Assembly: GCA_050289605.1 (NCBI GenBank)
Contig: JBNKGB010000006.1
Span: forward strand, 9,167 to 73,166
Direction: 5' to 3'
Length of the DNA stretch: 64,000 nucleotides
Origin: Roseibium sp.
GTDB lineage: Bacteria > Pseudomonadota > Alphaproteobacteria > Rhizobiales > Stappiaceae
In this document: one piece after another, positions 19,818-23,179 of the stretch
Layout of the letters: every line of letters begins with the position of its first letter
Numbering within the stretch: position 1 is the stretch's first letter
The notes under the pieces: model-generated
What the model was told of the DNA's origin: nothing
Databases searched by the model: none
What the model saw: only the letters and a program-made list of their open reading frames with translations
Translations under genes and position numbers: made by a program

Positions 19818-20684
19818 TCAGCCACCCGTTTCCCTGAGACCTGCCTCCAACGCATCCCACTGACTGCGCGAGACCGCTTCCTTGGACGCAAGCAGCCAGT
19901 AGGTCTGGTGATGCGGCAGGCTCTCCTCCGAAACCCGTTGCACGCGGTCTCCCTCCAGATCGTCACGGCACAGAGGCAGCGAGGCCAGCAGAACGCCCTG
20001 CCCGGCACGCGCTGCCGACAGCGCCGGCGCGAACGTGTCGAAACGCAGCCTTGGCAAGGGGGTGGTCGGAATGCCGAACCGGGCGCCCCATTCGCTCCAG
20101 CCCGGGCGCGGGCCGGACAATGCGATGCGCGGCAGGTCCGTCCAGGGCTGTCCGGATTTCAACAACCCGGGCGCAGCGACGGGCGCGATCAATTCGCCAT
20201 AGAGCGGCGATTTGTAGGCAACCGGCCAGTCTCCGGCGCCATAGCGTATCCGCACCGCGTCGTCCTCCTGCGGCGTGTCTGCGCTCAGGACCATGGTCCG
20301 GAAGGAAAGCTGCGCGTCGATACGGGAAGTCAGTTCCGACAGTCGTGGCAGGATCCAGAGATCGATGATCGAGGAACTTGCGGAGACCGTCAGCCGCTTC
20401 CGCGCGACACCGAACAGGCCCTCCGAACTTGCCCTGAGGCTTTCGAAGGCCGCCCGGACATGCGGCAGCCACGCCTCCCCCTCGACCGTCAGCGCGATGC
20501 TGCGTGCCTGGCGCAGGAACAGGCGCGTTCCAAGCCGCTTTTCCAGCTTGTCGATCCGTTGGCTCACGGCCGACTGGGTCACGCCGGTTTCATCGGCGGC
20601 TGCGGTAAAACTGCCGCAACGGGCCGCCGCCTCGAACGCCCGGATCCATTCGAGCGGCAGATTGTCGAACCGAGATCCATCCAT
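19818..20684 (-). CDS. LysR-family regulator (GcvA-like) divergent from tmpAB
   Basis: PLEWIRAFEAAAR.GSFTAAA..TQSAVSQRI HTH; IRYG.GDW. Confidence 0.92.
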   Translation of the reverse strand: MDGSRFDNLPLEWIRAFEAAARCGSFTAAADETGVTQSAVSQRIDKLEKRLGTRLFLRQARSIALTVEGEAWLPHVRAAFESLRASSEGLFGVARKRLTVSASSSIIDLWILPRLSELTSRIDAQLSFRTMVLSADTPQEDDAVRIRYGAGDWPVAYKSPLYGELIAPVAAPGLLKSGQPWTDLPRIALSGPRPGWSEWGARFGIPTTPLPRLRFDTFAPALSAARAGQGVLLASLPLCRDDLEGDRVQRVSEESLPHHQTYWLLASKEAVSRSQWDALEAGLRETGG

Positions 20685-20778
20685 TACCAAAACACCGTCT
20701 CAGGCCGCGATTTCCTAATTTGATTTTATGGATAGATGCTCCGATCCTTGCATTCAATATCTCAGGAGGGAATTTCGA

Positions 20779-21921
20779 ATGCTGGACGTAGCAATCGCCG
20801 GGGCCGGAACGCATCTCGCGCTGACGACTGATCAGGGACGGCACCGCTTTCATGCCATCTGGCTGCGGGATAATGCCTGCGACGCGGAGACCCGGTCCCC
20901 GGGCAACGGCCAGCGCCTGATCACGCTGCAGGATATTCCAGCCGGAACGCGTATCGCGGCGGCAGAGGTCCGGAACACCACTCTTTCGGTAACCTTCGAG
21001 CCGGAAGGCAAGACGGTGGACTATGCCTTCGACTGGCTGCTTGAACATTCCTACGACCGACCGCTTCGTGACGTCCGCGGATGGACCGCCGCGGAAATCG
21101 AAACCTGGGACGCAGCCCTCAACGCCGGCGTGCCGTCGGCGGCATTCGAGACCGTTCGGACCAAGCCTGCGGCAAAGCACGCCTGGTTGGCGGATGTCGC
21201 ACGTTACGGCTTCGGAAAACTCACCGGCGGGCCTGTCGAGGATCAGGCTCTCATGAAGGTGGTGGACCTCTTCGGCTATGTCAGGGAAACCAATTACGGC
21301 CGCCATTTTGAGGTCCGCACGGAGGTCAATCCGACCAATCTTGCCTATACAGGGCTCGGCCTCCAGGCCCATACGGACAACCCCTACCGGGATCCCGTCC
21401 CCACCGTGCAGGTTCTTTATTGCCTGGAAAGCTCGGCGGCGGGTGGCGAGAACATGGTGGTCGACGGTTTCCGGGCCGCGCTTCGCCTGCGCGAGGAAAA
21501 TCCGGCCTGGTTCGATGTTCTTAGCCGCTATTGCGCCCGGTTCGAATATGCAGGATCCGAAGGCGTCGTGTTGCGGTCGCGCCGACCGATGATCGAGCTT
21601 GCCCCCGACGGCGAGCTGATCGCGATCCGCTTCAACAACCGCTCCGCCGCCGCCACTACCGACGTCCCGTTCGAGGACATGGAAAGCTATTACGAGGCCT
21701 ACCGCAGGCTTGGCGAAATCATCGACGACCCGGCGATGGAAGTCACCTTCCGGCTGGAACCGGGCGAATGTTTCATCGTCGACAACACCCGCGTGCTGCA
21801 TGCCCGCAAGGCCTATTCGGGCACCGGCACCAGGTGGCTCCAGGGCTGCTACGCCGACAAGGACGGGTTGCTGTCTACCCTGGCGGCGCTGCAGACAAGC
21901 CTGCCGGAGGCGGCGGAATGA
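20779..21921 (+). CDS. tmpA: Fe(II)/2-oxoglutarate dioxygenase, BBOX-like; probable 2-(trimethylammonio)ethylphosphonate dioxygenase TmpA
   Basis: HTDNPYRDP (HxD) and [23 protein letters not shown]-domain without the Zn-binding Cys cluster; coupled to an HD oxygenase gene. Confidence 0.8.
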
Positions 21922-22514
21922 GCAAGCCGGACTTCTCGGACCTTTCCCGCGACAATATCGTGGCATTCCTCGGCGACATCTTCGAGCGTTGCGGCGACGA
22001 GGAATATCTCGGCGAGCCGGTGACCATGGCCCAGCACATGCTGCAGGGTGCGACCCTTGCCGAAAAGAACGGCCTCGACGAGGAAATCATCGTCGGTGCC
22101 CTGTTGCACGACATCGGCCATTTCACCTCCGAATTCGGGACATTCTCGATGGAAGACACCGAGGACCGCTACCACGAGGAAGCGGGAGCGGAGGTTCTGA
22201 GTCGGTTCTTTCCGTCCGTCATTACCGATTGCGTCCGCTATCATGTGGCGGCCAAGCGGTACCTGTGCGCGACCAAACCGGACTATTTCAAGCGCCTGTC
22301 CGAAGCTTCCATCCATTCCCTCAGCCTGCAGGGCGGGCCGATGAATGCGAAGGAAGTGGCCGAATTCGAGAAAACCCCCAACCTGAAAAAGATTCTTCAG
22401 GTCCGGCATCTCGACGAGGCCGGCAAGCAGCCGGACATGGAAACGCCGGACTTCTGGCATTTCGCGCCGATGGTACAGCGGATCGTCGACAGGCATTTCG
22501 GAGGCCAGTCTTGA
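21918..22514 (+). CDS. tmpB: HD-domain mixed-valent diiron oxygenase, PhnZ-like; probable TmpB
   Basis: [36 protein letters not shown] and DEAGK motifs; ATGA overlap with tmpA. Confidence 0.82.
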
Positions 22515-23179
22515 ACGCCCCTCAATATATCTTCGAAGCCAGCACCAAGCCCTCCCTGCCCTGGCATGAAGTTCCGCTGATCCGGGCGACCGAGGAGACG
22601 GTCAAGGGTTATGGCTGCCTGGTGGACGACCCTGAAAATTTCCGGATCGAAATCACCCGCTGGCCCCAGCAGGGCTGGCGGCCAATCGACGAGGGAACGG
22701 GAGACGAAGGCGGCTGGGTCGAGGGTGTCTTCAAGGGAACATGGCAGGGCGATGTACTCTACGGCGAAAACGAAGCGGTCAACGGCCATTACGTGCTGGG
22801 CTGGTCCACCGACCCGCAGCAGGCGCACACCGACCGTCAGACCGCCCCGCGCGACCGGGTGCTGCTGTGGCACATGAACTACCATCCCGACGGCGGCCAG
22901 CTGTTTTACCCGCTCGACAAGTGTCCCTTCATCGTGCCGGTGGCTCTGCCCGGCGACAATCTGACGCCCGAAAAAGTGGTCGCCTTCTGGTGCGCCGGAG
23001 ACCGCGGCCTCTATATCCACGCGGGCATCTGGCACGAAGGCATTTTTCCGGTGGAAGACGAGCAGCGTTTCCTCGACCGCCAGGGTGCCGTCCATGCACG
23101 GGTAAGCGCCGATATCGGCAAGGAATTCGGCGTCTACCTTGCCTGTCCGCTGAACGCGGACAAGATCAGGGACATATAG
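22511..23179 (+). CDS. cupin protein, ureidoglycolate lyase (AllA)-like
   Basis: TTG start overlaps the tmpB stop (TTGA) after a GGAGG; NYHPDGGQLF and GLYIHAGIWH motifs. Confidence 0.7.
   Translation: MNAPQYIFEASTKPSLPWHEVPLIRATEETVKGYGCLVDDPENFRIEITRWPQQGWRPIDEGTGDEGGWVEGVFKGTWQGDVLYGENEAVNGHYVLGWSTDPQQAHTDRQTAPRDRVLLWHMNYHPDGGQLFYPLDKCPFIVPVALPGDNLTPEKVVAFWCAGDRGLYIHAGIWHEGIFPVEDEQRFLDRQGAVHARVSADIGKEFGVYLACPLNADKIRDI

Follow-up and report, generated by a model that had tools for sequence, protein, structure and literature searches.

A translationally coupled AllA-fold cupin downstream of tmpAB as a probable accessory gene of aminophosphonate catabolism

INTRODUCTION

Aminophosphonates constitute a significant marine source of phosphorus as well as of nitrogen and carbon, and each accessory gene of their catabolism resolved to date (pbfA, pbfC/D, pbfF, and pbfG) has revealed another natural substrate. 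The trimethylated compound 2-(trimethylammonio)ethylphosphonate (TMAEP, also M3AEP) is processed by tmpAB, described as a two-gene operon whose products yield the (R)-1-hydroxy derivative, (R)-M3HAEP, and then phosphate and glycine betaine (PMC10574752). Here, we analyze a 64,000-nucleotide stretch of Roseibium sp. DNA (the window; contig JBNKGB010000006.1, positions 9,167 to 73,166), where tmpA and tmpB are followed by a coupled third gene encoding a cupin with the fold of the ureidoglycolate lyase AllA. The comparison of its homologues suggests that a known operon carries an uncharacterised enzyme family, probably misannotated as ureidoglycolate lyase, which seems to assist aminophosphonate catabolism as an accessory common to several systems, bridging the oxidative and hydrolytic routes.

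Both PhnZ and PbfA consume (R)-1-hydroxy-2-aminoethylphosphonate (HAEP), PbfA being inactive on the (S)-enantiomer. According to PMC8154272, pbfA and phnZ exclude each other in gene clusters, and pbfA occurs in 22.7% of phnWAY clusters. AllA itself takes urea off a carbinol carbon, a reaction proceeding also spontaneously (PMC3793230). One more AllA-related cupin, DUF4867, accompanies sulfonate catabolism as a dispensable accessory that fills no missing step and was proposed to be an isomerase (PMC11968277).

RESULTS

Coupling of the Cupin Gene to tmpAB

The operon comprises three genes and an internal ribosome binding site (RBS):

20779..21921, plus strand: tmpA, 380 amino acids, Fe/2-oxoglutarate TMAEP C1-hydroxylase (NF049936, PDB 6NPB)
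21918..22514, plus strand: tmpB, 198 amino acids, diiron HD-domain C-P-cleaving oxygenase with Y30xxE33 loop (NF049941, PDB 6NPA)
22500..22504, plus strand: RBS of the cupin gene, GGAGG, within the 3′ end of tmpB, 6 nucleotides 5′ of the TTG (sequence)
22511..23179, plus strand: AllA-fold cupin, 222 amino acids, TTG start; predicted accessory aminophosphonate-catabolic enzyme (PF04115, predicted structure, conservation, contexts)

The first product passes the NF049936 cut-off (605.9 bits against 400) and stays below that of the carnitine BBOX model (407 against 414.75); it combines PF06155 (GBBH-like N domain) with PF02668 (TauD) and has TmpA, 6NPB, as its best match in PDB (E 1e-157), a similarity high enough to suggest that TMAEP is its substrate and the (R)-1-hydroxy compound its product. 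The second one passes NF049941 (358.9 bits against 300) with TmpB, 6NPA, as best PDB match (E 2.5e-110); its Y30, E33, H40, H64, D65, H86, H109, and D166 are invariant in 31 alignment rows and comprise the HD diiron motif H..HD..H..H..D with the YxxE loop (PMC8177086). The identity of tmpAB assumed in the original prediction is thus supported by NCBIfam cut-offs and by structural relatives alike.

Neighboring reading frames overlap by ATGA at 21918-21921 (tmpA/tmpB) and by TTGA at 22511-22514 (tmpB/cupin). The translational coupling of all three genes proposed earlier is supported by these junctions, by the GGAGG motif, and by conservation of the 4-nucleotide overlap in other genomes. Codon-position GC content of the cupin gene (0.67/0.42/0.78) agrees with that of neighboring genes.

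The Cupin Has the AllA Fold and a Different Motif

Sequence databases annotate the cupin as ureidoglycolate lyase, and ESM Atlas search returned solely clusters auto-named ureidoglycolate hydrolase/lyase. The match to PF04115 (50.2 bits, cut-off 23) covers residues 122-188 only, and the protein falls below all eight AllA models, with the best score of 46.4 against a cut-off of 230 and another of 37.3 against 160. Its AlphaFold2 model, built on a 60-row alignment, has a predicted local distance difference test score of 94.6; the best structural match is AllA (Foldseek E 1.9e-9; VIA Z 15.5, root-mean-square deviation 2.6 over 142 residues), followed by DUF4867 (VIA Z 10.6), for which no Pfam match to the cupin appears at E 0.1. 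The suggested structural check against AllA came out with AllA as the top match; the protein passes no AllA model cut-off and lacks the first glutamate of the AllA motif.

The motifs recognized are W51-x5-R57, N123-Y-H125-P-D-G-G-Q130, W174-H175, Q191-G-x-V-H195, and E205. In 135 non-redundant rows, H125 is conserved in 129/133, Q130 in 126/134, and H175 in 124/130, and W51, R57, D127, Q191, H195, and E205 are strongly conserved within the family as well. NYHPDGGQ stands in place of ERHPxGxQ of AllA, the first Glu giving way to Asn in 115 of 131 rows and to Asp in 8. By analogy with E97/H99 of DUF4867, this Glu is taken to be a metal ligand, and the alignment accordingly predicts N123/H125/Q130/H175 as a putative metal site.

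At the 90% level, the family comprises 4,246 proteins. The source genome possesses a separate allA that passes its cut-off (276.9 against 260) and lies beside puuE on another contig (C151), so the cupin is a paralogue; a separate strong AllA is encoded in 17 of 27 other cupin genomes, 9 of the 27 having no other PF04115 gene. A purine gene (allA, puuE, uraH, or uraA) lies within 4 kb in one of 201 cupin loci. Taken with the missed AllA cut-offs, this makes the earlier suspicion that the cupin may not be purine-catabolic probably right.

Longer proteins containing the cupin included three (GNAT, MFS, and one unannotated) and one with a glyoxalase-like tail seen by eye; none of those found was a fusion to a phosphonate enzyme, which is weak evidence. 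Search in phages gave no match, and plasmid matches were Paraburkholderia chromids only, with no phosphonate neighbors in the single annotated record. Homologues also occur in dinoflagellate transcriptomes (P0149 cluster), and many relatives at 35-45% identity look eukaryotic.

Linkage to tmpAB Is Tight among Close Relatives and Rare across the Class

Directly upstream of the cupin, tmpA-tmpB is found in 68 of the 80 closest loci, and the 4-nucleotide tmpB-cupin overlap is kept in all 68, which is not expected by chance. Ruegeria contributes 38 of the linked loci, the others being spread across Rhodobacterales, Hyphomicrobiales, and one gammaproteobacterium (Marinobacterium); in Leisingera, the order tmpA-tmpB-cupin was seen in seven loci out of seven. 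Homologues of the divergent LysR form a 54-member cluster among the neighbors of linked loci, and genes flanking LysR and the cupin vary, so that LysR-tmpA-tmpB-cupin behave as a four-gene cassette.

A different picture emerged from the class-wide survey of 400 evenly sampled Alphaproteobacteria: 19 genomes carry the cupin, which adjoins tmpB in just two of them, and five of the seven sampled genomes with tmpB at no less than 70% identity are devoid of it, which makes the cupin an accessory. Within the 15-kb regions around 15 further tmpB loci no cupin was found, four of these loci belonging to genomes that have it elsewhere. Consequently, linkage to tmpAB anticipated by the original prediction is true for the closest homologues and does not extend to the class, and the assignment of the cupin as a tmpAB-specific third component was not borne out, since most homologues are unlinked and most tmpAB systems lack it. 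Its role as an obligatory third TmpAB step is rejected on account of the same five of seven tmpB orthologues.

In L236:6672-7499, L239:1683-2513, and L017:8673-9500, a gene of the alkaline-phosphatase superfamily (PF01663), a candidate phosphonate-ester hydrolase, lies closely 3′ of tmpAB-cupin. L255:4022-6660 contains tmpB-cupin without tmpA directly behind a glutamate-cysteine ligase gene, and L015:7619-8669 an intact cupin preceded by what is left of a frameshifted tmpB; tmpA is absent there, and the genome gives no PbfA match. In L223:6061-9037 (genome G261), another BBOX-like dioxygenase gene comes after tmpA-tmpB, together with carnitine-catabolism-like genes (translations judged by eye), an arrangement that looks to link TMAEP and carnitine use.

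Other Phosphonate Contexts

Phosphonate genes were found within 4 kb of the cupin in 103 of 201 loci (69/80, 5/19, 1/5, 11/80, and 17/17 by set); these neighbor counts were obtained with hand-set score thresholds and references coming partly from the same loci (self-matches), identities being checked with NCBIfam. In one family of streamlined marine genomes (f192; 0.9-1.6 Mb) the cupin occurs in 56 of 61 genomes and directly follows phnW in 17 loci out of 17 examined, these being chosen from the 56 mostly for divergence. Their surroundings include phnY/phnA, a PbfC-like oxidoreductase, aminoethylphosphonate (AEP) transport, and a PhnZ-like gene (11/17 within the regions examined) or phnX. L257 combines phnA-Y-W with a phnR-like LysR-cupin-tmpA-tmpB array; the cupin precedes an AEP ABC transporter and pbfA in L056, follows an AEP permease gene in L270, faces a convergent phnX in L273, and adjoins PhnZ-like genes in L269 and L215, while L136 and L138 combine it with a phnR-like LysR and choline sulfatase. 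On a quick tree, whose deep nodes are open, phosphonate contexts are scattered across separate cupin subclades.

PehA-like phosphonate-monoester-hydrolase/sulfatase genes were noticed beside pbfA or phnWAY clusters (L320:2433-3944 and L321:14854-16377). The phosphonate island of L191:2602-6136 and related f192 loci contains a PhpC/PsrA-like dehydrogenase of the Fe-ADH family, a methionine-synthase-II-like gene, and a solute-binding protein, which suggests the use of 2-hydroxyethylphosphonate as well.

Co-Occurrence with Consumers of (R)-Hydroxyphosphonates

Within the class sample, PhnW is encoded in 15 of 19 cupin genomes and in 62 of 381 others, and an HD oxygenase of the PhnZ/TmpB-like class (35-59% identity, hence a class that may include oxygenases for other substrates) in 16/19 and 58/381, respectively. 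When only PhnW-positive genomes are considered, the oxygenase accompanies PhnW in 13 of 15 with the cupin against 16 of 62 without it, the remaining two cupin genomes carrying PbfA. A prediction was formed beforehand and put in writing later: if the cupin supplies (R)-1-hydroxy-aminophosphonates, cupin genomes devoid of the oxygenase should carry PbfA. PbfA exceeded its cut-off in 9 of 11 intact-cupin genomes without a PhnZ/TmpB-like match; among controls (every second of 46 eligible genomes with PhnW and with neither oxygenase nor cupin), PbfA was found in 6 of 23, five over the cut-off, a rate close to that given for phnWAY clusters in PMC8154272. In the class sample, each of the 18 alphaproteobacteria whose cupin is intact has the oxygenase or PbfA. 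G064 is the only genome in which the cupin carries an internal deletion (L148:7536-7883; about 80 residues lost, including the motif); the gene lies there beside a glycine-betaine ABC transporter, and the genome shows no match to the oxygenase, PhnW, or PbfA.

The phosphonoacetaldehyde branch found no support: PhnX or PhnA is present in 5 of 10 TmpB-like genomes with the cupin and in 6 of 9 without it.

Regulatory Region, Flanking Genes, and the Rest of the Source Genome

Upstream of tmpA, the locus includes two more elements:

19818..20684, minus strand: LysR-family regulator (GcvA-like), 288 amino acids, ATG at 20684 (PF00126 + PF03466)
20685..20778, no strand: divergent spacer, 94 bp, AT-richer, with the AGGAGG RBS ahead of tmpA (sequence)

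The spacer is presumed to contain the promoter and LysR-binding region; scanning revealed no sigma-70 consensus, and no promoter or terminator signal above chance was found. Domain models confirmed every gene of the arrangement read initially from the sequence, i.e., LysR divergent from the BBOX-like dioxygenase, HD oxygenase, and cupin. Beyond LysR, Pfam scan identified genes for EamA and MarR proteins, the latter having homologues in 2 of 68 linked loci (two genes upstream of tmpA examined). Just 3′ of the operon, on the plus strand (23347-24111), is encoded a secreted-looking fusion of FKBP peptidyl-prolyl isomerase with rhodanese (PF00254 + PF00581), absent from the recurring neighbors of the tmpAB-cupin cassette. 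Neither an allantoin gene nor a phosphonate transporter adjoins the operon, as had been stated earlier. Nearest named relatives of the cupin, TmpA, and TmpB belong to Roseibium (91, 86, and 93% identity, respectively).

Elsewhere in the source genome, apart from the tmpAB contig, an AEP ABC transporter is encoded on contig C60 and a phnR-W-A-Y-pbfA cluster on C140. This contig ends inside pbfA (494.8 bits, with 315 of 442 positions covered), and a PbfF candidate from L318, unverified as PbfF, has no close match in the source genome (36% at best).

DISCUSSION

A Feeder of (R)-1-Hydroxy-Aminophosphonates?

Some accessory function in phosphonate catabolism is likely for this cupin. More tentatively, and with somewhat less than even confidence, the data are best explained by a coupled AllA-fold metalloenzyme, most likely converting (S)-forms, that provides the C-P-cleaving step with (R)-1-hydroxy-2-aminoethylphosphonates; this fits the idea of a variant substrate that accompanied the original prediction. 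The two parts of this reading differ in strength. A feeder of the (R)-hydroxy pool is a possibility we hold at that same tentative level, whereas a racemase specifically is rather doubtful, the rest of the feeder reading being covered by an enzyme that frees the (R)-compound from some precursor or conjugate. Since PbfA has its substrate class, but not its product, in common with the oxygenases, the simplest position of the cupin would be upstream of both kinds of (R)-hydroxyphosphonate consumers, TmpB/PhnZ and PbfA. PbfF, an unrelated NAD-dependent enzyme, racemises (S)- to (R)-HAEP, a precedent implying that salvage of (S)-HAEP in this way is selected for (PMC12366243).

Mechanistically, the neutral metal set N123/H125/Q130/H175 would suit an anionic phosphonate, and the cupin may use the carbinol-collapse chemistry of AllA-type cupins. 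Collapse of the alkoxide on a 1-hydroxyphosphonate would expel phosphite, making the enzyme a lyase if phosphite is released and a racemase if it is re-added. That the cupin is a metalloenzyme free of redox cofactors which, through such collapse, cleaves the C-P bond of 1-hydroxy-aminophosphonates and possibly makes it again is, in our estimate, unlikely; were it true, marine bacteria at large and some protists would have a new way of cleaving C-P bonds without oxygen.

Several observations weigh against the supply of (R)-hydroxyphosphonates. Most distant loci have no phosphonate neighbor (14/19, 4/5, and 69/80), many of them on short contigs; one flank is short in 48 of the 80 metagenome loci, and 5 of the 32 longer ones are phosphonate-positive. 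An M20 hydrolase of the "allantoate amidohydrolase" subfamily adjoins 4 of the 80 metagenome loci, and several cupin loci contain genes of betaine, choline, or carnitine metabolism. Enrichment in cupin genomes extends to puuE, a purine gene (14/19 versus 64/251), so plain co-occurrence of the cupin with phosphonate genes is discounted as confounded, and within puuE-positive genomes the phosphonate excess is not significant (7/8 versus 36/62, p 0.14). For PbfA, Fisher p of 0.003 (9/11 versus 6/23) is overstated because kin are non-independent and the groups not taxon-matched; nor are genomes independent elsewhere, with 38 of 68 linked loci in Ruegeria, and the breadth of the oxygenase class noted above acts in the same direction. 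The prediction missed in two genomes of 11, namely G411, where the cupin follows a frameshifted tmpB remnant, and G434, which is 92% complete. Cupin genome G405 has directly after pbfA a PF02826-type dehydrogenase gene, which by context may be PbfF and make a second racemase redundant. Finally, racemisation of an alpha-hydroxyphosphonate without redox cofactor is chemically demanding, and literature searches gave no precedent for it.

Alternative Functions

An oxygen-independent C-P lyase acting on a 1-hydroxy-aminophosphonate, probably the (S)-form, and giving an aldehyde (betaine aldehyde or aminoacetaldehyde) with phosphite is of low probability; it would predict the same co-occurrence with (R)-specific enzymes. 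Phosphite is a poor leaving group from the dianion, which counts against such a lyase. Its bond logic would be that of AllA releasing urea from ureidoglycolate (PMC3793230) and that proposed for DUF4867/KdgF (PMC11968277), and structural similarity to a bacterial hydroxynitrile lyase of the cupin type (4bif) is weak (Z 5.4) and lies within background. No phosphite-dehydrogenase-like neighbor was recognised in the annotated loci, where no search was aimed at ptxD.

The same low probability is ascribed to a function in betaine, choline, or carnitine metabolism downstream of TmpB, i.e., not in a phosphonate step. Its grounds are neighbors such as choline sulfatase (L136, L138, L296), a ProX-type transporter (L148), MttB and GcvT-type demethylases (L232, L240, L060, L211), homocysteine methyltransferase (L060), a beta-keto-acid cleavage enzyme (L245), and a carnitine-dehydrogenase-like thioesterase (L285 clade); however, it leaves unexplained the links to phnW (17/17), phnX, pbfA, and the AEP transporter, none of which yields betaine.

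A little less probable is the clearance of 1-hydroxy-phosphonoacetaldehyde, either by its faster breakdown to glycolaldehyde and phosphate or by isomerisation. PhnW transaminates R-HAEP to this aldehyde, which PhnX does not use and which decays slowly (PMC8154272), and the cupin directly follows phnW in f192 and shares 15 of 19 genomes with PhnW. Yet the quaternary hydroxylated TMAEP cannot be transaminated, although the tightest coupling is to tmpB, and three genomes (G261, G381, G352) combine cupin and tmpB with no PhnW match.

Quite improbable is an amine lyase independent of pyridoxal phosphate (PLP) that would split hydroxylated TMAEP into phosphonoacetaldehyde, directed to PhnX or the PhnY-PhnA route, and trimethylamine: L257 and L048 do combine tmpAB, cupin, and phnW/phnY genes, and no tested FAD enzyme acts on M3AEP (PMC10590968), but PhnX or PhnA is no more frequent in TmpB-like genomes with the cupin (5/10) than in those without it (6/9). 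Least probable of all is the chance presence in these operons of an ordinary, if divergent, ureidoglycolate lyase or of another enzyme acting on ureides, as PF04115 membership, AllA fold, database annotation, the absence of another PF04115 gene in 9 of 27 genomes (four of these with PuuE over cut-off), and the 80 metagenome loci, four with the M20 neighbor and one with a dihydropyrimidinase-like one, are outweighed by the score of 46 bits against 230, the Glu-to-Asn change in ERHP, about 55 additional residues, allA beside puuE in the source genome, a strong separate AllA in 17 of 27 others, and purine neighbors in a single locus of 201.

Significance

The cupin family is large and nearly core in one streamlined marine family. 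The comparative result leaves as its substrate a few compounds accessible by synthesis, namely (R)/(S)-HAEP with their N-methyl forms, so that the question is directly testable by published assays.

Comparison with Known Systems

The Roseibium locus repeats the TmpA-TmpB system of Leisingera caerulea (6NPB, 6NPA) in gene order, coupling, and passage of family cut-offs. That system is described as a two-gene operon in PMC10574752, and a third coupled gene is unmentioned in the reviews consulted; the cupin has 80% identity to a protein assigned by name to L. caerulea. The words "cupin" and "ureidoglycolate" have no occurrences in the main texts of PMC12366243, PMC10590968, PMC8154272, and PMC13576164, and term searches gave no mention of the cupin in those of PMC10574752, PMC8316502, and PMC9381506. 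The gene was therefore rightly called undescribed as far as the papers searched are concerned, the original 2019 TmpAB paper and supplements, where a mention is possible, being outside this scope.

With AllA (PF04115, EC 4.3.2.3; 1YQC, 2BDR) the cupin shares the fold and the H-P-x-G-x-Q and W-H motifs; it differs in identity of 15-20%, length (222 versus about 165 residues), Asn for the first Glu, additional W51/R57/D127/Q191/H195/E205, lack of purine context, and coexistence with true allA. DUF4867 (SftX/SqvB; PDB 9GYY), an AllA-related cupin with 10% identity to the one described here, has a 2-His-2-Glu iron site and a sulfo-sugar context (PMC11968277), in contrast to the predicted N/H/Q/H set and phosphonate context of our cupin. 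Similar in genomic behavior are PbfA, PbfC/D, PbfF, and PbfG (PMC8154272, PMC10590968, PMC12366243, PMC13576164), which likewise are sporadic accessory genes of aminophosphonate clusters; these are PLP, FAD, or NAD enzymes that feed the hydrolytic route, whereas links of the cupin extend to oxidative (tmpAB, phnZ-like) as well as hydrolytic clusters. PbfF performs the very (S)-to-(R) step proposed for the cupin and has the NAD-dependent PF02826 fold, which the cupin lacks, so that the two would be at most functional analogues. Like the Pbf factors, the cupin presumably widens the range of aminophosphonates accessible to its hosts.

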